Assembly: GCA_043826505.1 (NCBI GenBank)
Contig: JBDRQC010000004.1
Coordinates: 524,974-588,973 of the forward strand
Source of the DNA: Chrysiogenia bacterium
Lineage (GTDB): Bacteria > Acidobacteriota > Aminicenantia > UBA2199
Reading direction: 5' to 3'
DNA length: 64,000 nucleotides
Position numbers and translations under genes: made by a program. Position 1 is the stretch's first letter, and the number at the start of each line of letters is the position of its first letter. Below, piece by piece: positions 20,536-53,355 of the stretch. The notes beneath the pieces are model-generated. The model was not told where the DNA came from. It did no database searches and was given only the letters and a program-made list of their open reading frames with translations.

Positions 20536-20609
20536 GCTTTCCTCCCTGATCTTTTTTTTTGCCTGTTTTTTTTTCTAAAGTAACAAAGCCCAGCTTCCCA
20601 AAATTCTTC

Positions 20610-23201: not shown

Positions 23202-23337
23202 CTCCTCCTCCCCGGAACTCAGGAACTCAGGGACGGACTGTTAATCTGTGTATCCTTTTGCCGCCCAGCGTTTGTGATTCTGGTCATCAATTTTAAAAAA
23301 GCTATAATGAAAGACCTGACACCATTGCCTCTCCGAA

Positions 23338-23766: not shown

Positions 23767-23927
23767 ATGTTCTCCTCATGAACAAGCGGGATCAAATCTC
23801 ATTTTCAGAAATTTGCGCCGATCTCAAGCATCGCCCCAGTTCCTTCTATCCCGGAAACTTCATTTCTATTTTTTTCCTGAATTCACAAAGTCAAGCACCA
23901 GCCCCGATATTCCCGAGGCCCCCCGCC

Positions 23928-26199: not shown

Positions 26200-26236
26200 T
26201 GTCTAATATTGAGACCTGACCCCGTTGGCCCATTCC

Positions 26237-26932: not shown

Positions 26933-27084
26933 TGTTCAACCTCCATTTTCAAACTATGGGCAGAAGGCGCTTTTTTTGATTTTTGCACCTTTGATAGGCC
27001 CTGTAAAATCTATAGTTCCTTGGTTCCTGGTTTTTCATTATTACTTCATCCCAGGAATCATTTGTAAAAACGTAAGACCTGACC

Positions 27085-27450
27085 TCATGTGTCAATATTT
27101 CCCTGATCTTTCGCTTTCCTCTTTGCACTTTTTTTCCATTTCGGTTTCGGAAGCGGAAGTTCTTGCGCGGTAATCCTGATCAAGCCGCTGAGCCATTCCT
27201 GGTCTTCATATGCATCTCCTATTAAAAAGCACAACTTGGCTCCGGGATAGGGCGGGGCTTCAACAACATCGCCTATATATGCCCTGCCGCCTGCGGTCGG
27301 CTTCACAAAAAGCTTGTTGTCACAAACCAGGGCCACGACTTTATTGTTGCAATATATTACATACTCGCCGAACATTTGCCTGTGAGAAATAAATCCGGCA
27401 TTTTCCATTTGCCTTGCGATGAATTCAATGAAAATTTTATCAGATGCCAA
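27085..27450 (-). CDS. TfoX N-terminal domain-containing protein
   Basis: IEFIARQMENAGFISHRQMFGEYVIYCNNKVVALVCDNKLFVK matches TfoX/Sxy N-domain; TGA stop lies inside motif A. Confidence 0.65.
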   Translation of the reverse strand: MASDKIFIEFIARQMENAGFISHRQMFGEYVIYCNNKVVALVCDNKLFVKPTAGGRAYIGDVVEAPPYPGAKLCFLIGDAYEDQEWLSGLIRITAQELPLPKPKWKKSAKRKAKDQGNIDT

Positions 27451-27675
27451 TGCGAACTCCTTGTTCGGAAAAATGGTGACGTTGCTTGCTAATATGTATT
27501 TTAACCATGAATTAAATCGACAAGCAAGCTCTTTTGAAAGCTATCCCGGAAAACGATTCTGATTTATGCATGGCTGCAAGCATCGCCCGCAAATCCCTCC
27601 CGGGATATCAAAAAATTTTTGCGCTTTGACGGTCCGTCCCCAATGGCCTTTCAAATGCCTTCCGCAGAGGAACCA

Positions 27676-28119: not shown

Positions 28120-28329
28120 CCAGTCACTCCCTGCCGGCCCCAAAATTTAAAACCTGTCATTTCAAGACCTGACCCTCATGCCCCGGTTTGCCTCGACTTC
28201 TCCGCCAGCCGATAGATGTCGCAGCCGCCGCAATACAGCCCACAATAGCCGTCGAGTTTTATTTCGTCCATTTAATTCCTCTATCGCAAATTGTCCAAAG
28301 TCAAGCACCTTCCCCAAAGGCCGATTTTC

Positions 28330-29596: not shown

Positions 29597-29858
29597 TTTT
29601 TACCTCCCCTCTAATCCGCCCGTATCCAGGTGGACAATCTCTAATCCTTTTTTTAAGCGTAATTGCAATAAAATTCAAGCTTTTTTTTCTGTTTCTGTTT
29701 TTTTTAAATCTACCCGTATGATTTTCATTTCATTCAATCAAAGTCACAAAGTCAAGTCCCCAAAGCCTGGTTCCGTCCCCAAAGTCTGGTTTTTCACTTT
29801 GCCCAAACCAATTGTCATGAAAGACCTGACACCGATGCCCAGTCAAACACAACTGTGC

Positions 29859-30269: not shown

Positions 30270-30627
30270 CCGCTCCTCCCTTTTGCCGTAACTATTTCTT
30301 ATCTAAATCCTATCCCGCTACCCTGAACATTCATGCGAGCAGCAAATGGGTATCCGCTCAATTTCCACATTCACAAATGGAACTGTCATTTCAAGACCTG
30401 ATCCTCATGCCAGAAGAATATAAATGCCCCTTGTATTAGCAGGAATATTACGAATTTCTGTTTGCGGTCTAAATTCAGCAATTTGCTTTATAAATCTACA
30501 TTTGGACGTTGACATTAGACATTCTCCTTAACTATCATTGCTAACACTCTCTTTTGCAATGCCCCCACTTGAAGCCAAATATTAAAATAAAAAAATTTAT
30601 TATTCAAAGACTAGCCCTACTGTCTTC

Positions 30628-30984: not shown

Positions 30985-31300
30985 ACTTACTCCTTTGGAG
31001 GCATGATGGTCAGAACTAGAAAAATTAGAACCTTATAATTCAAGACATGACCCTCATGCCTTACTAACTACTTGACAGTGACCTTCTAATGGGCGTCCCC
31101 AATTCCCAATGATGACTGCTCCTGCAAGCCGTCACCGAAAGTCCTGCCTTCATCTACCATGCAGCTTCTCATGGCACACAATGGGCGTCCCTTTTGCCTC
31201 CTGTACGTTTGCCCAAGAGAGAGAAAAAGAGACGGGTCAAACTTCAGTAAACCGAACCCACTGAAAACGCAAGTCAAGAATAGCGTATACGTCGAGTTGC

Positions 31301-33741: not shown

Positions 33742-33937
33742 TAGACCGGTGGTAACCTGGATTTCTCAACCGCCTTTTATTTTTCCTTTATTCTATTCTC
33801 TCTATCTACCCTATAGGCGCCAATTTTTGGTGAATCTCCGGTGTTGCACAAGTGTTTATGAAATTTCCACGTTTCCAGACACTGATAATCCCCCCACTAA
33901 AGAATATTCAAGTGATCAACATGACAAAGTCAAGAAG

Positions 33938-35545
33938 TCAAGCACCGAGCAAGCTCTCCCTTGTTCCATCTCCGATAATTGTTCCAAACTCATTTTTGTG
34001 GCAAATCACATCTATTTCGGTAAAATACTTTTCATTATACGATGAAGAATAATTGGCATTCTGAGGATTCACATTAGAATTGACAAGTTTTCTATATAAA
34101 ATACAAACATTTCCTCCAATCAGCACATCGCTTCCAATTATACTGAATGCAATATTGCAAAATGACATTATTCTTGTGCCTGACAGTATAATTGAATTCT
34201 TTATTATCGTATTTGCTTCAATAAAGACCCTTTCGTCAAGATTGGAATTTTCAACCAATACATTTTTCCCAATATAGCATCCCGCCTTTAATACACAAAC
34301 ACCTTCTATTGTTGCGAAATCATCAATAAATTTTGGGTTACATCCTATTGGTTTTATTATCATCCCATTTACTGCCGCTCGTGAACTAATCCAATTATCG
34401 GAGTCATTAATCCAACGAAATTTTCTGAATTTTTTATTATCTAGCAATTCTCTGAATTTACTTCCATTTGGATGATTATCGATTTTATCAGACATTTTAT
34501 TAGACATTGAATCTGACATTAATATTTCAACATCATATCCCTCAAGGTTCGGATGATCAAGCTCACACTTACAATTAGCTAGGTACCAATCAAGATAAGC
34601 TTCCTTAATAACTCGATCTGCATTCAAATGTTCCCAAGGAAAATTAATATCAAAACATACATTGTTGATAGATTCTTCTGACAAACAAATATCAATATTT
34701 GCTTTTCGGCTTAAATATGGGAAAATAAAATAATTTATAAAATGTTTAATAAAAAAATAATTGGCTATCTGGTTTTTTACATTTAAAATTTCTTTCCACA
34801 TTTTAGAATTCATTAGAATCAATCCAGTAAATTTTGCCAAAATATTTTCTTTATTTAAATAATTTTTTAAATTAAAAACTGGATATAACGGCCTATCAAT
34901 AACATCAACAACATTTCTGAAATTTATTTTTTTATAATTTATTTTGTTTTTGGTATCATCATGGGATCCCTTTTTAATTACAAAAAAACTTTGCAAATTA
35001 TGTGATTGGAATTTCACTTTTGATTGAATCGATTTTTCATGAAGATTCTTTGTAAAATCACTAGCAGCAAAAACTGCAAATGGGGATTTATTGACAATCT
35101 TTTTCTTAGCGGTTTCAAAAATAAAACTCCAAAAATCATCATGAATCAGGGTATCACCACAAATAACAATAATTGGATTTTTGTCAAATGACTCAATTGA
35201 TTTATAATAATTCTCTTTAAGATAATTAATACCTTCCACGATAGATGGAAAAATCCCCTGGGCAAATGATGATGACACTGTTGCGAAACAGACTATTCCC
35301 AAATATCTCTCGGAATTAAATTGGTTTTTTTACAAATCCAGATTATTTGGATCGGCAACTATACAAATTTTATTTACGAATTCTCTTTTTTCTTTTTTTA
35401 GCAAATCATCTATTAAAAACTGAATTGTGGTTTTATGATTTAATGGCAAAAGGTTTAAAAGTGGAGAAATTTTGAAGAAACTTGATATTCCACTGAATTC
35501 TTTTACCGTAGGAACTATTACATTATACTTTGCAATAGACAACAT
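33938..35545 (-). pseudogene. sugar-phosphate nucleotidyltransferase / left-handed beta-helix (hexapeptide) acyltransferase, split by a frameshift
   Basis: ORF 35330..35545 (KISPLLNLLPLNHKTTIQFLIDDL like the NTP-transferase PxLPxxxKPxI region) and ORF 33938..35302 (IVICGDTLI GD motif; C-term hexapeptide repeats IIKNSIILSGTRIMSFCNIAFSIIGSDVLIGGNV) are separated by a T7-8 run at about 35325-35331. Confidence 0.55.
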
Positions 35546-35991
35546 AGGTTAATTAATATTTACTCCATCTCAGTTCGATTTTTGACATATACTAGATTAT
35601 AATGAAGAATATCTGAAAATCAAGCGCTGCTCAATTTTTTTTGTTGATATTGTAATATTTATTTTTTACTGTAATTGATTTCATTGAAGGCTTCTTCAAA
35701 TCATGGAAAAGAAAATGAGAATCGTGTCTTGAATTAACAGGTCGATCAATAACCATTTTCACGAATATATTTGTCATTTCAAGACATTATACTAATACCC
35801 CATGCCCCCAATCTTCCCTATTAAGAGAAAGCTTGGTGCCAGGTCTTGCATTATCGCTTCTGCCAATGCCCAGAACAAGAATATGTTTTCAATTAGATAA
35901 GAAAACCCATTTTGTCATAATGTAAGACCTGACAGCATTTCTTCCTGTTCTTCCCTAGACGTACTTTCACTTTAAGAATACATTTATTATT

Positions 35992-37056
35992 TTATAACTT
36001 AATTGTTTTCTCATAAACAAATGCAACACTATACTTAGCCCTCGTAATTGCAACGTATAAACCCGCTTTAGTTCTGGGTTTAAGTTGTGATGAATCCTTT
36101 TTTGCCAGATATTCACAAATAGGTTTATTTGGAAAAATGAGTACGCGTTCAAAAGTCCTGCCTTTTGCCATTCCAAAATTAATTGATGGTAGCTCCATTG
36201 TGGAAGTCCTAATCGAATCTTTTAAAACAATCGGTTTAAATTTATTATAATAGTGAGGGACCTCACATTGCTTTATCACGAAAACACCATCATGCCCAGT
36301 AACATCAGTATTCTTTGAAATTGTGGGGATTAGCTCAGGATATAAATGGTCTGCAAAATCACAAATTGTTTGATTGCAACGAAAGCTCTCATTCTTCTGT
36401 ATAACCTCACAAAATCCTTTTTTTTTCCAGTCATTGAACAACTTAATGATATTATATCCTTTATATTTCTTGTTTTTGGGGGAACAATTTGTAAAATAAG
36501 TTGATTGTCTACAATCCCCTACAATTATTATATCAATCTTAGAACGAACTAATAGTTCTAAGAGATCAAAATCGTATCCAGCCATATCTTGTGACTCATC
36601 AATGAAAATTTGATCGAAAATTTGCTCAAGCCGTTCAATTACGAGTCCCTTAGATAGTTCATTGCACACACATGCAAATTCAGCGATCTTATCAGTGTAT
36701 ATCAATTCTCCGTTTTGAAGATAATATACTGCAGTATTCTTTCTAGGGACTCCTATGACAGACCTGCCTTCAATAAAAGAGATATTACTGATCCTCTTGA
36801 TGTCGTATAAAAAATTTTGATAAGGGCGTACACATTCTTGAAGTAGAAAGGAATACCAGGTAAGTATATGAAGATTTTTCGGAATACAACTGACTCTCTG
36901 TGAAATGAAATCATCAACCTGTTGCAAGTTTTCAATAGTATATGTGGTTATTAATGTTCGTTTGTTAATATTTTGAAGCGCCGCTTCAACTAAAATAGTC
37001 GTTTTTCTTGCACCCGCAGATGCAATTACTATTTTCTTACAAGCTGAAAGCATCAA
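35992..37056 (-). CDS. gajB: Gabija GajB, UvrD-like helicase
   Basis: IVIASAGARKTTILVE (Walker A), IFIDESQDM (motif II), GLYVAITRAKYSVAFV (UvrD C-terminal motif); overlaps gajA by 20 nt. Confidence 0.8.
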   Translation of the reverse strand: MMLSACKKIVIASAGARKTTILVEAALQNINKRTLITTYTIENLQQVDDFISQRVSCIPKNLHILTWYSFLLQECVRPYQNFLYDIKRISNISFIEGRSVIGVPRKNTAVYYLQNGELIYTDKIAEFACVCNELSKGLVIERLEQIFDQIFIDESQDMAGYDFDLLELLVRSKIDIIIVGDCRQSTYFTNCSPKNKKYKGYNIIKLFNDWKKKGFCEVIQKNESFRCNQTICDFADHLYPELIPTISKNTDVTGHDGVFVIKQCEVPHYYNKFKPIVLKDSIRTSTMELPSINFGMAKGRTFERVLIFPNKPICEYLAKKDSSQLKPRTKAGLYVAITRAKYSVAFVYEKTIKL

Positions 37057-38653
37057 GAATATATTGGGGGACTTTTATTGGAGAAGAATAATTGAAGAGC
37101 TTCAAAGCACACTCAGTCTTATTTTTTTCCTTACGCATGAATGACATCATTGATTCTTTATCTAAATCATTCCTAGAAAATATGGTGTTTAGTAAGCCAA
37201 GTTCATTAACCTTGGCAATTTGGCATTCTAACGTGGGATATTTATCATCCTTGTCATAACAAATTTTTATATTGGATTTTTTTAAATAATCACCATATCT
37301 TAATTCAATATTTTTTCTAAAGTCCCCATCATTATCAATAACAACCACTACTTTCTTTTCAAGCAAAGCCGCAATCTCAAGAAAACGCTTGAAGGAGAGA
37401 CTCCTGACAGATATCACATCGAAATCATCTTCGATTGGGAGTTTTCCATTCTTCTGAAAATATGCCTTTTGTACTATCAACTCATCAGAAGGACCTTCAA
37501 CGAGAATCGGCCGCTTCGAAATAATCAGTCGCAATGTGTCGTACCCCGGCAGCTTTTGAAAATAATCTTTTGTGCTATTTGAAAGATTTTTCAAAGAAGT
37601 AACCTTCTGTCCTTCTGCTAGAAGAATGACTTTATCAATACCAAGTTTGTTTAAAACAAAAGTGCTATGCGTAGTCAAAAGAACATGCTTTGACATGCAT
37701 TTTTCTTGAATTTTACTGATAAGATTATTCATTGTTGAATAAGATAAATGATTCTCAGGTTCCTCAATAAGTATAAGATGCGCATCTGTTGCCTTACGAT
37801 CAAGTGCAATTAGCATTTTCAATATACTTTGATCACCCTTCCCAATATGCTGAAAAGGTATTTCATCAAGATACGAAGTCAAATTGGTTTCCCAATTCGC
37901 CTTCTGGGTAATATCAACTGACACTTGAAGCTGTTTGTCAGAAATTTTTCCCTTCTCAGAAGCAAGCCTCGCATTAATCTTAGCAATTGCTCCTTGGTTG
38001 CTGAAGGTTTCTTTCAATCTACGATATTCCACTGCCAATTCAGCGCGTTCTTTAAGATCAAGAGAATCGTCAATTATTTTTTGAATATAATAGTCCGAAC
38101 CATATTGAAGCCGGATTGTAGTTGTGTCAATTAGTGTAACATTCATCCCAAGGCTTCGTTTTGTTATAGTCTTATAAGCAAAAGAAAACCATTGTACTTT
38201 GTAATACTCAGTTGGAATGTTTTTTATCTTACTTAAGTCGGAGATATAACTCAGGTATTCATCGGAAAAATCCTGGTTAAATTCAATTAAAAGTCTAATT
38301 CCCGGCGAATTGGTTTTTTTAGAGTTATTTGTACCCTTTAGTGCGGCAAATTCAGGATCATCCGTAAAATAAAGCTCAATCCAAATTTTTGGTGGGGCAA
38401 CTTTATTACCAGCGTTTAGTGCTGCAAAGTATTCTGAAACACACTCCCTATTAAAAAGATATGGAGAAAGTTCAAAGGCTATATTTCTTCCAAATAAATC
38501 TTGAGTAAGGCAAAGGTTGATTGCTTCTATTAATGTCGACTTCCCCGTTTCATTGTCTCCAACAAGTAAGGTCAACTGATTAGACAAATCTATTTCCAGA
38601 TGACGGAAGCATTTAAAGTTATGAACAATTATTTTATGAAAAATCATTCCCAT
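37037..38653 (-). CDS. gajA: Gabija GajA, OLD-family ABC ATPase-TOPRIM endonuclease
   Basis: N-term IIVHNFKCFRHLEIDL...LLVGDNETGKSTLIEAI (AAA_15/AAA_21), ILIEEPENHLS (Walker B/D-loop), C-term TOPRIM ILVEGPSDE...VVVIDNDGD. Confidence 0.85.
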   Translation of the reverse strand: MGMIFHKIIVHNFKCFRHLEIDLSNQLTLLVGDNETGKSTLIEAINLCLTQDLFGRNIAFELSPYLFNRECVSEYFAALNAGNKVAPPKIWIELYFTDDPEFAALKGTNNSKKTNSPGIRLLIEFNQDFSDEYLSYISDLSKIKNIPTEYYKVQWFSFAYKTITKRSLGMNVTLIDTTTIRLQYGSDYYIQKIIDDSLDLKERAELAVEYRRLKETFSNQGAIAKINARLASEKGKISDKQLQVSVDITQKANWETNLTSYLDEIPFQHIGKGDQSILKMLIALDRKATDAHLILIEEPENHLSYSTMNNLISKIQEKCMSKHVLLTTHSTFVLNKLGIDKVILLAEGQKVTSLKNLSNSTKDYFQKLPGYDTLRLIISKRPILVEGPSDELIVQKAYFQKNGKLPIEDDFDVISVRSLSFKRFLEIAALLEKKVVVVIDNDGDFRKNIELRYGDYLKKSNIKICYDKDDKYPTLECQIAKVNELGLLNTIFSRNDLDKESMMSFMRKEKNKTECALKLFNYSSPIKVPQYILDAFSL

Positions 38654-38947
38654 CTATAATCCCCTTCATTATTAATATAAAATCATTCAATTTCAGTAAA
38701 AACACTTAATTGTTTAAAACTTCTATTAGAAATTTCTTACCCATTTAGAATCAAGGGAAAATTCGGTGCCAGGTCTTTCATTAATACTTTTTGGCCAAAT
38801 CAAAATCAAGAGAATGGTTTCAAAAAGAGATTTAAAAATACAATTTTATTAGAAAAAAATATCTGCCCCATTTCATTCAAACAAATCTTAAAAATCAAAA
38901 CATTTGAAATTCATCTCAATCATACATTTGGCAGAATTCTAGCATAA

Positions 38948-39334
38948 TCAGACTTTCATCAGCAGATTCCTCGTACTTTTTAGGACTTGATCTAGTTTGA
39001 TTCTTTTTCTTTTAATCATCACATCTGTCCAAGTGCCCGGTTCCAACCAATAGCTACCTTTTAAAAAGCATCTTTCCGCCAGATCGCCATCAATATCACG
39101 AAGTGGGATGCTCGAATCATGCCAGAGTTTCGCTAAAGCCAACTCTCTTTTACGGTCTCGTTTTTTACCAGAATCCAAATCCTTAATGTATGCCTTTGTT
39201 TCATTAAGAGCTGCATAAAGAGCATATAACGCTTGGTCTATTCTTTCATTTCTATATTTATGACGATCTCTGATCAAGCCAAGTGCCGCTAAAAGTCGAT
39301 CAAAAATAGCAAATGTAACTTCATTCGGTGCCAT
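38948..39334 (-). CDS. hypothetical protein (orphan between Gabija and Mrr)
   Basis: 128-aa ORF, charged, no motif recognised. Confidence 0.45.
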   Translation of the reverse strand: MAPNEVTFAIFDRLLAALGLIRDRHKYRNERIDQALYALYAALNETKAYIKDLDSGKKRDRKRELALAKLWHDSSIPLRDIDGDLAERCFLKGSYWLEPGTWTDVMIKRKRIKLDQVLKSTRNLLMKV

Positions 39335-39598
39335 ATAACCTCCTAATAATTATCATAATCTAAAATAAAGAATTAACATTTTTTATCCTAGCTCCAATAA
39401 TGGCCTGGGGAAGCTTCTCAGGAGAGAGAGAATTCCTTTTGCATCCATAGATTGATTAAAAAATAAATTATAAGTTGTGGCGGACAAGAAAGAAAATTCG
39501 GGCCAGGCCTTGAATTGAAAGATCAATCATTGATCGTATTAAAAAAAACTGTCATTTCAAAACCGGACTCCAAGCATTGGAAATAACTACTTTTTATG

Positions 39599-40528
39599 CT
39601 ATATACTTTCATCAAAATAATCCATATCGATCTTTTTCACAGGATAGAGCGATACTGTCGATACTCCAATATCATTCTCTATCATCAGGTTGGTGAGTTG
39701 CTCCCCATCAATTAAAACAATCTTGCTTCCAATCTGAGAGACATAATTTCTAGCTTCATTAGAGAATCGAGAGGTTGTAATGAATATACCTTTATTTGCT
39801 TTCTGAGCTTGAAGAGCTCCGGCAAACTGCATGACATCCGGTCTGCCAACTGAATTAGTATCCCATCGTTTCGCCTGGATGTAAACGACATCAAGCCCAA
39901 GTCTATCCTCCTTGATAATCCCATCAATACCGCCATCTCCACTTCTACCAATTGCTTTTCCAGCGTCAGCGCGTGAACCTCCATAACCCATCTTTACAAG
40001 CAATTCGACAACAGCACGCTCAAAAAAGGATGGCGAAGATTTTTTAAGTCTGGCAAGAAGTTCGTCTCCCAGCTCATCTCGCAAATTTTCATAGGCAGTT
40101 TCAAGTGCCTCTGATGGAGTAGCCGCTGAAATGTCGGGTGTACCATCCGAGGAACTTACTTTCTCACCTCTTCGCGTCCCCTTGAGTTGCTGGAACTCAA
40201 TAAATTCAGGATACTGTCTGAGAAGTTTTACATTGATCACTTTAGGCTGCTTTTTGAGGAGATCTTGCCCACGCGAAGTAATTTTAAAATAGCCCCTTCG
40301 CGTAGCTTCGAGCAGACCAGCTTTCTTCATATAAGTAGCCACCCAGCTAACTCTATTAACAAGGGTTGATTGAATACCGCTTGGAAGCATTTCTTTCATG
40401 TCCTCATCTGTCAAGTTCAATTCTTTCGCTAGAGCTTCAACGGCTTCTCCTGTTGATGTCTCATCGTTTTTCTTTCCTGCAAAACGGAGAACTGGCAACA
40501 TCAAACTTTGATAATCTGGAACAGCCAT
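39599..40528 (-). CDS. mrr: Mrr type IV (modification-dependent) restriction endonuclease
   Basis: N-terminal Mrr_N winged helix; catalytic core GGSRADAGKAIGRSGDGGIDGIIKEDRLGLDVVYIQAKRW (Mrr_cat D-(D/E)xK). Confidence 0.85.
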   Translation of the reverse strand: MAVPDYQSLMLPVLRFAGKKNDETSTGEAVEALAKELNLTDEDMKEMLPSGIQSTLVNRVSWVATYMKKAGLLEATRRGYFKITSRGQDLLKKQPKVINVKLLRQYPEFIEFQQLKGTRRGEKVSSSDGTPDISAATPSEALETAYENLRDELGDELLARLKKSSPSFFERAVVELLVKMGYGGSRADAGKAIGRSGDGGIDGIIKEDRLGLDVVYIQAKRWDTNSVGRPDVMQFAGALQAQKANKGIFITTSRFSNEARNYVSQIGSKIVLIDGEQLTNLMIENDIGVSTVSLYPVKKIDMDYFDESI

Positions 40529-40765
40529 GTGTTAATCTCCTTTTTCTCTCAATTAACCTTTTTTATGCTTGTTCGGATTATTTTTCAAGTGCTGGATTGA
40601 ATTCATTTTACAAGCTCCCGCCGGTGGCCTTTGTGAGCTTTTTCAGGGGAGGACGAATTCTCTCATTATCCATGCGGCGAATAAGAGAAAAGTATAAATA
40701 CTAAAAACAAAACAAGCAATAGGGAAAAATGTAGTATTGGGGATCTCGAATCACAGCGACTAGAG

Positions 40766-40793
40766 TTCAGTGTTAGTGATAGTGTTAGTGTTA
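40766..40793. repeat. tandem 7-bp heptad repeat (AGTGWTA/AGTGTTA)
   Basis: CAGTGTTAGTGATAGTGTTAGTGTTAGC; related copies at 42202-42229, 60214-60231, 62374-62391 and inverted GCGTGAC-type at 41215-41230, 60396-60416. Confidence 0.6.
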
Positions 40794-40820
40794 GCAGAAA
40801 AAGGCAATCTCTTTATGTAG

Positions 40821-40848
40821 GGGAGGGTCTGTGACCCTCCCGCATTTT
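40821..40848 (+). terminator. intrinsic-terminator-like hairpin
   Basis: GGAGGGTC-TGT-GACCCTCC perfect 8-bp stem followed by CGCATTTTT; no obvious upstream plus-strand gene, so function is uncertain (possible sRNA 3' end). Confidence 0.3.
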
Positions 40849-41039
40849 TCCATTTAAGGAGATTAAAATCCCTTTGGGGTGCAACCCTCCCGCATGATCA
40901 CCAATATCCGTAGGATTTTGATTCATCAAACCCTGCGAGAACCCGCATTCCGCCACAATCCGCAGGGGCGATCCGGCCGCACAAATCATCCGCCGACCTT
41001 GGCGGATCTGATTTGTCCGTCCCCGCAGGGGGCGGGTCG

Positions 41040-41215
41040 CCCTGCTTAAATTCCAAATACCAAGCACCAAATAACAAATAAGCACCAAAATCCAATAACC
41101 GAATGACCCAAACAAAGAAAGAAAAGGCAAAAGGGCTTTTGTTTCGAACATTGGAATTTGGAACTTGGATTTTGTTTGTTATTTGTAATTTGTGATTTGG
41201 AATTTCATTCTTCCT
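41040..41215. repeat. AT-rich imperfect palindrome built from CCAAAT/ATTTGG units; a second copy at about 60240-60395
   Basis: 41044-41130 is close to the reverse complement of 41135-41215; the same unit arrangement (TTGGAATTTGG...GGTGCTTATTT) recurs near 60300-60380. Confidence 0.55.
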
Positions 41216-41347
41216 CGTCACGCGTCACGCCAGGGCGGCCGTCCGCCAGGCGAAGCGCCGGCGGATCACCTCTACGCATGCCGTGTTTCTCTTTTTTCTT
41301 CAACCTCGAACCTCGAACTTCGAACATCGAACCCTCTTCCCCGTCTA

Positions 41348-41376
41348 TTGACTTGCCGCGCCTACTCTGCTAAATT
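41348..41376 (+). promoter_or_regulatory. sigma70-like promoter for the NYN gene
   Basis: TTGACT (41348-41353), 17-nt spacer, TAAATT (41371-41376); GGGGGAG RBS before ATG 41400. Confidence 0.45.
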
Positions 41377-52417: not shown

Positions 52418-53355
52418 AGATCGTGCAGGTGCAAAAGTCCGCTCAATCGGTTATCGCCGTTCATGACGACAAGCGAGGTTACCGCCCGTTCTTCCATGAT
52501 CTTCAGGGCCTCGACCGCAAGTTTGTCTTCACTGATACAAAGCGGGTTGGCGGTCATGCACTCCTCGGCCCGGGTCTTGGCAAAATTGATGCCTTTCAGG
52601 AAAAAGCGGCGCAGGTCACCGTCGGTAATAATGCCGGCGACTTGATCGTTTTCCCGGACCACGATGGCCACGCCGAATTTTTTTTCATTGATGGTGCGAA
52701 TCACGTTTTCCATTGACGCCGAGAGGTCGGCAAGCGGCAGCTGTTCGCCCCGGTGCATCAGGTGCCTGACCTTGAGCAGTTTTTTGCCTATCTGCCCGCC
52801 CGGGTGGAAAAAGCGGAAATCATCCTCGCTGAAACCGCGCTTTTCCATCAGGGCAATGGACAAGGCGTCGCCCATGGCCAGGGTCAGGGTCGAGGATGCC
52901 GAAGGTACCAGCCCTATAGGGCAGGCCTCCTTTTCGACGCCGCAGTCGATGAATACGTCGCTTTGCCGGGCCAGGGTCGATTCGGAGTTGCCGACCAGGG
53001 AGATAAGCTTGATGCCCAGGCGCTTGATATAATTGAGCATGCGGATGACTTCATCGGTTTCCCCGGAAGTGGAAAGGGCGATCACCGTGTCTTCGGGATG
53101 GATGATGCCGATATCGCCGTGGATGGCTTCGGCCGGATGCAGGAAAATGGCCGGACTGCCGATTGAGGTCATGGTGGCCGCTATTTTGCGGCCGATCAGG
53201 CCCGATTTGCCCATGCCGGTGACCACGATCTGGCCGCGGCATTGGAAAATGAGCTCAACGGCGTCTGCGAATTGATGATTGATTTTGCCCAGGGCTTTTA
53301 AAATGGCGTTGGCTTCGGTCTGGAGAACTTTCTTTCCGGTTTCAATACTGCCCAT
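52396..53355 (-). CDS. kdsD: arabinose-5-phosphate isomerase (SIS + tandem CBS)
   Basis: SIS domain GRKIAATMTSIGSPAIFLHP...ALSTSGET; two CBS domains at C-term. Confidence 0.85.
   Translation of the reverse strand: MGSIETGKKVLQTEANAILKALGKINHQFADAVELIFQCRGQIVVTGMGKSGLIGRKIAATMTSIGSPAIFLHPAEAIHGDIGIIHPEDTVIALSTSGETDEVIRMLNYIKRLGIKLISLVGNSESTLARQSDVFIDCGVEKEACPIGLVPSASSTLTLAMGDALSIALMEKRGFSEDDFRFFHPGGQIGKKLLKVRHLMHRGEQLPLADLSASMENVIRTINEKKFGVAIVVRENDQVAGIITDGDLRRFFLKGINFAKTRAEECMTANPLCISEDKLAVEALKIMEERAVTSLVVMNGDNRLSGLLHLHDLWRTEMI

Follow-up and report, generated by a model that had tools for sequence, protein, structure and literature searches.

What is a short motif carrying TTGACT doing in the spacers of a bacterial gene array, repeated copy after copy in the same orientation? 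The question arises from a stretch of contig JBDRQC010000004.1 (assembly GCA_043826505.1, a bacterium of class Aminicenantia, phylum Acidobacteriota), which we call the window; the term covers the whole 64 kb and not the motif itself. The motif, here motif B, lies on the gene strand of the array, which is the minus strand. The initial annotation had offered two functions for it, a promoter module driving the next cassette or the proximal half of a recombination site. The second of these comes close to the truth, since motif B is the terminal inverted repeat (TIR) of a Y1 (HUH) element and coincides with rearrangement joints in related contigs. We consider it likely, with a probability of roughly 0.75, that the copies in the window are dispersed solo TIRs, about 30 bp long, of a TIRtron, and that they mark joints between shuffled gene modules and are not promoters. 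A TIRtron is an element of about 1 kb in which one TIRYT gene lies between two inverted repeats. TIRYTs belong to the RAYT/IS200 superfamily of HUH/Y1 single-strand-DNA transposases and have an extended C-terminal part. Related contigs and loci are given labels beginning with L; those from L002 to L095 come from a genome collection.

Motif B reads GGTGCTTGACTTTG on the gene strand and has four copies in the window, with a possible fifth:

23883..23910, minus strand: B copy 1, a solo TIR-B, GGGGCTGGTGCTTGACTTTGTGAA; contains the exact 16-mer; nhmmer E 6.6e-6
28296..28318, minus strand: B copy 2, TTGGGGAAGGTGCTTGACTTTGG; nhmmer E 2.4e-4
29738..29767 (29756-29738 by nhmmer), minus strand: B copy 3, TTTGGGGAC followed by TTGACTTTGTGACTTTGATTG; nhmmer E 2.6e-4
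33922..33950, minus strand: B copy 4, ctcGGTGCTTGACTTCTTGACTTTGTC; nhmmer E 4e-6
20573..20594, minus strand: possible degenerate fifth B copy, just past the stop of an ICMT-like gene; weak, nhmmer E 0.16

Scanning the plus strand for CACAAAGTCAAGCACC with at most 3 mismatches returned 23884-23899 (0 mismatches), 28294-28309 (2), 29745-29760 (2) and 33931-33946 (2), together with a fifth match (3 mismatches) at 52761 on the opposite strand that is probably due to chance. The chance expectation is 0.52 matches per 64 kb, and none of 100 shuffles reached five. Furthermore, an nhmmer profile made solely from the copies of other contigs recovered the same four copies, with E values from 4e-6 to 2.6e-4. 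The mismatch scan, the shuffles and this independent profile thus confirm the four copies reported initially. A partial copy that had been placed at 31269-31278 gave no profile match even at E<50 and is to be dropped. No inverted partner of motif B was found in the window, either with up to 2 mismatches or by profile.

The copies differ in their surroundings and in their state. The head of copy 1 begins 22 nt past the stop of a 273-aa open reading frame (ORF) and 117 nt ahead of the ATG of a 142-aa ORF, and copy 2 begins 12 nt past the stop of a 317-aa ORF and is followed by a DUF3795-like N-terminal fragment. The motif had been described as lying 20-30 bp after the upstream stop; two copies agree with this, 23899 at 28 nt and 28309 at 20 nt, and the other two do not. 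The third lies about 98 nt past the stop of the SnoaL gene, and the fourth, as had been noted, overlaps the stop of a 454-aa ORF, whose TGA (33940-33938) is the TGA within the motif's cTTGAc. Copy 3 carries a 5-nt deletion (GGTGC) by which its head TTTGGGGAC is joined directly to TTGACTTTG, and a second partial head, CTTTGGGGACGG, is found 19 nt upstream of it. Copy 4 represents a sub-type with TTGACT duplicated and without the GGGGAC head, which is also found in L061 (two copies) and L005. Two spacers hold both motif B and its sister repeat, motif A (see below), and their differing order had been read correctly: it is stop-B-A in 28329-28144 (B at 28318-28296, A at 28180-28150) and stop-A-B in 29858-29597 (A at 29837-29821, B at 29767-29738).

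The identity of motif B became apparent from other contigs. It recurs in the loci fetched for motif A, where it has a longer consensus of about 30 nt, aTTGGGGACGGTGCTTGACTTTGTGACTTTG; conservation runs from TTGGGGAC to GACTTTG, with none beyond. The 20-mer GGTGCTTGACTTTGTGACTT of motif B has exact matches in 61 metagenome contigs, and no viral contig was found to carry it. In L118, L126, L147, L155 and L140, forward and inverted copies of motif B, 944-1028 bp apart, enclose an ORF of 301-302 aa with the sequence MRRARLTYPGAFHHVMNRG...NHYHVLL...YLLQNPVRAG, and the same left end is present in L132 and L154. At the right end, the repeat adjoins or overlaps the stop codon of this ORF, whose product is a Y1 transposase (Pfam Y1_Tnp, 28.7 and 39 bits against a cut-off of 23). 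Similarly, forward and inverted copies of motif A bracket a gene of 285-326 aa starting with MSRPLRI.YPGA.YH in L083, L022 and L016, and a forward copy stands ahead of the same MSRPLRI-type gene start in L044. The A-flanked protein matches Pfam Y1_Tnp (3e-12) and the NCBIfam model of the REP-associated tyrosine transposase (85.3 bits, cut-off 80). The two transposases share 36% identity (E 6e-29), and both repeats have the layout TTGGGG-N-C-N-G-NN-CTTGA...TGAC, which indicates sister repeats of sister enzymes. As an additional observation, a different Y1 transposase gene (227 aa, MARQLRIEYEHAFYHV...) at 1060-1743 of L126 and 6-689 of L147 ends inside the left B repeat of the B-type element, which indicates that two such elements are nested or abutting.

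Such an arrangement has been described before. In passages of Di Nocera, De Gregorio & Rocco (2013, PMC3733652), RAYT-like genes with long TIRs, and not the hairpins of repetitive extragenic palindromes (REPs), are reported, their proteins being named TIRYT and the structures TIRtrons. According to these passages, the repeats share a head, GGGGWSAS, at a constant distance to the coding sequence, and form "moderately abundant" families of dispersed copies, single, dimeric or grouped, one group being specific to Acidobacteria. Twenty of 26 TIRYTs fall into TnpA-REP subclass 2.1, with C-terminal helix-turn-helix (HTH)-like extensions (Quentin et al. 2018, PMC6006769). The head of motif A (GGGGTCAG) fits GGGGWSAS at 8/8 positions and that of motif B (GGGGACGG) at 7/8. 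The TIRYT proteins here have 285-302 aa; as this exceeds the 146-position catalytic core, a C-terminal extension exists in them as well. The repeat is a new member of the TIRtron repeat families, a known but obscure class. A full-text literature search for the literal A and B sequences gave no match.

In related contigs, the repeats coincide with truncated genes, with the ends of duplicated units and with breakpoints. One case involves the small ORF behind B copy 2 (28180-28272, minus strand), which comprises the first 30-31 or so codons of a DUF3795-type gene, MDEIKLDGYCGLYCGGCDIYRLAEKSRQTGA*. This gene is intact behind motif B in L153, and it is cut at the same codon (about 30) by motif B in L129 and by motif A in the window, the B-DUF3795 junction being common to all three. 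Where the cut falls, the intact gene reads GGAGTCAAGG, similar to a repeat head. A cupin homologue is likewise cut at codon 31 by motif B in L152, whereas full-length homologues (77-84% identity) stand behind motif B in L150 and L115. The homologues of the cupin and PNPOx genes (77-84% amino-acid identity) have differing neighbours in L150, L115, L151 and L097; in L151 the two are adjacent, whereas in the window they are four genes apart. We rejected the ends of these homology blocks at gene boundaries as recombination breakpoints, since non-coding flanks are undetectable at about 80% identity, so that only the changed gene order counts.

Furthermore, in L080 (Aminicenantes UBA6072), a 623-bp unit consisting of forward B, a 118-aa gene, A and inverted A is present twice, 4 kb apart, with 95.8% identity. 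The similarity extends from 4-5 nt before the B head to 5 nt past the inverted A head, and no target duplication accompanies the unit. Gene blocks common to several loci are bounded by A or B. Over all fetched loci, 37 of the 160 internal endpoints of homology blocks (23%) lie within 10 nt of a repeat versus an expected 1.7% (binomial p 2e-30), although the loci were chosen for containing repeats and the endpoints are not independent.

In this reading, the four or five B copies of the window and about 14 A copies are non-autonomous ends in the spacers of the island. They may be bound and cut in trans by a TIRYT encoded elsewhere in the genome, or may offer short homologies to host recombination; either activity would insert, delete and reshuffle adjacent gene modules. 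A solo copy would carry TTGACT along, which alone would make no promoter. From 20 to 34 kb there are 11 copies of A and B, all in one orientation. The GC skew of the plus strand is negative in 49 of 64 windows, and thus these copies all lie on the G-rich strand. Their uniform orientation fits the strand bias typical of Y1 elements, with a preference for the lagging-strand template, and directional growth of the array is an alternative; either could apply.

Several points weigh against this reading, in addition to the selection of loci behind the enrichment given above. No TIRYT gene was found in the 64-kb window by tblastn (best E 0.6), so that mobilisation in trans in this genome is unproven. 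The B-type protein reaches 54 bits (E 1.3e-14) with NCBIfam REP_Tyr_transpos, below the cut-off of 80, and Pfam at E<=0.05 gives no HTH in the C-terminal extension of either the A-type or the B-type protein. The window's B heads read GGGGCTGG, GGGGAAGG and GGGGAC followed by TT, and copy 4 is headless. We found no report of experimental transposition or cleavage by any TIRYT in the literature. Finally, single B and A units have no hairpin (minimum free energy, MFE, 0 and -1.3 kcal/mol), unlike known Y1 substrates. Y1 enzymes normally read hairpins on single-stranded DNA. Motif B contains a direct 8-bp repeat in tandem, TGACTTTG-TGACTTTG, and this tandem and the C-terminal extension are candidates for recognising a non-palindromic end.

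Could the copies nevertheless be promoters, with TTGACT as the -35 element of a sigma-70-type module driving the gene that follows each copy? TTGACT agrees with the consensus TTGACA at 5/6 positions and is thus not the perfect hexamer that had been claimed. All four window copies face the next gene. Additionally, the autonomous element keeps a promoter-like geometry: five left ends read TTGACT, 17 nt, TAAGCT, TAAGAT, TAAGTT or AAAGCT, 6 nt and ATG, in a leaderless-like arrangement, and a divergent sixth reads TTGACT, 17 nt and TAGAAT, then a 68-nt leader with a Shine-Dalgarno sequence. The spacing to a -10-like hexamer is hence kept in 6/6 distinct left ends and the distance of 29 nt from TTGACT to ATG in 5/6, and the A-type element carries TTGAAA at the same 29 nt in 2/3 cases. 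Five of the six B left ends are closely related, so this conservation is not independent evidence; TTGACT is plausibly the -35 element of the transposase's own promoter, which, judging from the left ends, may often give a leaderless mRNA. The solo copies, however, lack the rest. The conserved repeat stops 9-11 nt past TTGACT, so that a solo copy brings no -10 element. A consensus scan called a -10 hexamer (>=4/6) at 16-18 nt in none of the four window copies. Among 82 distinct solo copies in other contigs, four had a -10-like hexamer at 16-18 nt versus three to ten at five control offsets. Of the copies elsewhere, 27 have downstream coding sequence on their own strand and 34 on the other, and in the B-DUF3795 unit a Shine-Dalgarno-like GAGG stands where the predicted -10 element or start would fall. 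The -10 scan, control offsets and strand counts together indicate that dispersed B copies are not promoter modules in general, though not decisively, as the promoter consensus of this phylum may differ; we regard the promoter proposal of the initial annotation as unlikely.

A function in RNA appears very unlikely as well. Here, along the lines suggested for classical REPs, transcripts of the upstream gene would carry the repeat at their 3' end, where it would serve as a terminator, mRNA stabiliser or translation brake. Indeed, three of four copies begin 0-22 nt past, or on, a stop codon, REPs are placed mostly 3' of genes in a passage of PMC3733652, and the sister repeat A, when in doublets, folds into very stable hairpins (-20.1 kcal/mol, z -9.2). 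However, only the A doublets fold: the B consensus has an MFE of 0 kcal/mol on either strand, and the four window copies with their flanks (0 to -2.7 kcal/mol) are no more structured than shuffles (z -0.3 to +0.6). The missing inverted partner also argues against it, as do a terminator scan that called none of the B copies and the absence of Rfam matches over the whole window at gathering thresholds. Motif B might also be an operator of a domesticated regulator, its tandem TGACTTTG-TGACTTTG being bound by the DNA-binding tail of a TIRYT-like protein, or by another factor, that controls the genes nearby with no movement of DNA. The direct 8-bp repeat and the HTH-like extensions of TIRYTs (PMC6006769) would suit such a role, and RAYT-type genes are usually single-copy and regarded as domesticated, as stated in part of PMC5581495. 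Conversely, the truncated genes, the duplicated units ending at repeats and the breakpoint enrichment point to DNA rearrangement, the B-type protein has no Pfam HTH, and orientation and distance to the neighbouring genes vary; we consider an operator highly improbable. The array of co-oriented, mostly small and unrelated genes with spacer repeats, some of which contain stop codons as attC sites do, could finally suggest a whole or partial integron attC site in a cassette array. This is effectively refuted: the window has no tyrosine recombinase (Pfam on 60 ORFs; tblastn with IntI1 and XerD queries, best E 1.4), motif B has neither an imperfect-palindrome architecture nor AAC...GTT core boxes, several spacers are just 5-70 nt long and free of repeats, and motif B flanks a Y1 transposase elsewhere.

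Other sequences with B-like heads are present around the copies. A non-coding block of about 125 nt (27467-27607, minus strand) starts with the head GCGGGCGATGCTTGCAG; it lies upstream of the TfoX gene in the window and upstream of the PNPOx gene in L151, and is also present in L080. The related head GGGGCGATGCTTGAG is found at 23842-23826, and this variant stands directly 5' of motif A in L013, L063 and L090. Head-only relatives, all on the minus strand, lie at 27634-27652, about 31085-31099, about 31177-31192 and 29774-29800, reading ATTGGGGACGGACCGTCAA, TTGGGGACGCCCATT, GGGACGCCCATT and tandem CTTTGGGGAC units. About 15 of 68 motif B copies in other contigs carry a stack of two or three partial heads just on their 5' side; these may be traces left by repeated events, or additional binding sites. 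At 38795-38898 (minus strand), just upstream of an inverted A copy, AT-shifted sequences resembling motif B and its 3' flank, TTGATTTTTAAGATTTGTTTGAATGAAATG (compare TTGACTTTGTGACTTTGATTGAATGAAATG at 29755) and CTTGATTTTGATTTGG, may be decayed B copies in a low-GC block.

Motif A (GGGGTCAGGTCTTGAAATGACAG; GGGTCAGGTCTTGAAATGACAG on the gene strand) was the first motif of the initial annotation. It has about 14 copies in the window, all within the island. The copies located individually are as follows:

28150..28180, minus strand: motif A, cutting the DUF3795 fragment and providing its stop codon; nhmmer E 1.5e-9
30380..30409, minus strand: motif A, ending a 36-codon gene fragment; nhmmer E 1.1e-8
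31029..31059, minus strand: motif A (GGGTCATGTCTTGAATTATAAGG); nhmmer E 0.014
29821..29837, minus strand: motif A upstream of B copy 3, with the 10-nt core GTCAGGTCTT exact; E 0.45
27074..27090, minus strand: motif A overlapping the TGA stop of the TfoX_N gene; E 0.031
26212..26226, minus strand: motif A of the GGGGTCAGGTCTCAATATTAGACA sub-type; E 0.09
23311..23328, minus strand: motif A past the 142-aa ORF; E 0.12
39492..39575, between the Mrr gene and a 128-aa ORF: motif A doublet, 39575-39546 forward and 39492-39522 inverted; E 4e-4 and 1.8e-4
35726..35941, between GajB and the 454-aa ORF: two motif A doublets, by repeat alignment and nhmmer, 35941-35924 forward with 35829-35848 inverted and 35785-35772 forward with 35726-35743 inverted
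38758..38777, plus strand: inverted motif A upstream of GajA; E 1.5, clearest by repeat alignment

The GGGGTCAGGTCTCAATATTAGACA sub-type is also found in L013, L063, L090 and L097. The short ORF at 30405-30515 (minus strand) is an N-terminal gene fragment (..NTRGIYILLA*) whose TGA comes from motif A, and which, by eye, looks GIY-YIG-like. Exact matches to the 19-mer of motif A, TCAGGTCTTGAAATGACAG, came from 94 stretches of GTDB genomes, whose labels include Aminicenantes, Thermoanaerobaculia, Desulfomonilaceae, Clostridia, Caldisericales and Patescibacteria; some of the short contigs may be mis-binned, and several matches are in contigs of 100-970 kb. When aligned, these copies read (a)TTGGGGTCAGGTCTTGAAATGACAGtt. 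It is often found at 10-17 loci per metagenome-assembled genome (MAG). Its 3' partners are lineage-specific, such as perfect 43-nt hairpins in a Thermoanaerobaculia MAG and a repeated unit of about 150 nt in MG2_202303_bin_136. The identity of the 19-mer across phyla is unusual, as REP-type repeats are normally lineage-specific.

The island that holds the repeats extends from about 20.5 to 40.6 kb, with every gene on the minus strand, and mixes small genes with defence genes. Its Pfam content includes SnoaL-like, cupin, PNPOx-like and TfoX_N proteins, a 4Fe-4S protein, a DegT aminotransferase and many proteins without a family. A low-GC stretch (0.28-0.38; 34000-40000) contains a Gabija pair at 35992-38653 on the minus strand (GajA, 538 aa, 5.7e-202; GajB, 354 aa, 2.3e-119; 20-nt overlap) and an Mrr-type type IV restriction enzyme at 39599-40528 on the minus strand (3e-98), with the A doublets occupying the spacers among these genes. 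This block looks like a horizontally acquired defence islet within the array. The flanking genes are housekeeping ones (Mfd, the CCA-adding enzyme family, folate synthesis, a P-type ATPase and a tricorn-like protease), and the arrays nearest to that of the window are in Aminicenantes MAGs. Neither Pfam (60 ORFs) nor tblastn detected an integrase or transposase in the window, and tblastn gave no remnant of a transposase gene beside the window's B copies. A tRNA/tmRNA scan of the window, which bears on an attachment-site origin of the repeats, was likewise negative. At 40600-41350, a non-coding region carries the low-complexity repeats ctaacactaacactatcactaacact and caaattacaaataacaaacaaaatcc, 50-nt inverted arms (41055-41104 and 41156-41205) and GC-rich terminator-like hairpins (40821-40841 and 40988-41007). 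Pieces of it recur in L035, L130, L098, L099 and L156 with 79-93% identity and without an Rfam match, and it is probably another repeated non-coding element.

A bolder proposal, which we hold to be doubtful though not negligible, is that A and B are not just decaying transposon ends but functional sites at which an HUH/Y1 transposase (TIRYT) shuffles cassettes. Gene modules with a repeat at their head or boundary would be excised and joined again to other repeat heads, or to sequences resembling them, building co-oriented arrays of accessory and anti-phage genes, here with Gabija and the Mrr-type enzyme. If true, this would be a parallel to integrons that uses a single-strand-DNA transposase, with related repeats across several phyla. 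More generally, TIRYTs and TIRtrons have received very little study since they got their names in 2013. The present loci provide two well-conserved end sequences, each paired with its own transposase, as well as natural "experiments", namely one gene cut at the same codon by two repeats and a duplicated unit ending at repeats. They suggest that, in Aminicenantes and other uncultured lineages, the ends are active joints in islands of accessory and defence genes, and they offer a substrate on which the biochemistry of a Y1 transposase using non-hairpin ends can be tested. They also carry a warning for annotation, as such arrays resemble integron cassettes or rows of promoters and are neither.

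Among known systems, integron arrays share with this one their co-oriented, largely promoterless, small and unrelated genes, including defence genes, and repeats that can contain a stop codon. However, the enzyme here is of the HUH/Y1 class where integrons have a tyrosine recombinase, neither an attC fold nor a nearby integrase or attI is present, and many spacers are repeat-free. IS91/ISCR elements also use an HUH enzyme, and one of their ends mobilises adjacent genes, which is a mechanistic analogy only for co-oriented ends with cargo; they have Y2 rolling-circle transposases with ori and ter ends, bear no relationship beyond the HUH motif, and nothing here shows rolling-circle copying. The IS200/IS605 family and its miniature derivatives (PATEs) share an HUH/Y1 catalytic domain and an expected strand or orientation bias, and the lack of a target-site duplication at the L080 unit agrees with them. 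Their ends, however, are subterminal hairpins in the same orientation, whereas terminal inverted repeats are found here, with a TIRYT protein twice as long and no TnpB partner.

REP and REPIN sequences with RAYTs (Nunvar 2010, PMC2817692; Bertels & Rainey 2011, PMC3116915) have a homologous Y1 transposase, the A-type protein reaching NCBIfam REP_Tyr_transpos. They are likewise short, extragenic and present in many copies, and the inverted A doublets form long hairpins. Conversely, B doublets are absent from the window, and the sequence here is conserved across distant taxa, whereas REPs are lineage-specific and vertically inherited. A classical REP reading was rejected, as single units are not palindromic and do not fold, and in place of the GTAG/CGTC tag there is a (T)TGGGGAC head.

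TIRtrons remain the nearest relatives, with some differences. The A 19-mer here is identical across MAGs of many phyla (some short contigs possibly being mis-binned), the repeats delimit gene-carrying units as well as truncated genes, and their array is co-oriented and lies in a variable, defence-bearing island; the latter two features are not described for TIRtrons in the passages cited. The likenesses are structural: in related contigs, a lone Y1 (HUH) transposase gene sits between inverted repeats that keep a constant short distance from it, the head is GGGGWSAS-like (7/8 positions in motif B), and the units are not self-complementary. As in TIRtrons, dispersed single, paired and grouped copies lie between genes, and they are prominent in Acidobacteria-related lineages.

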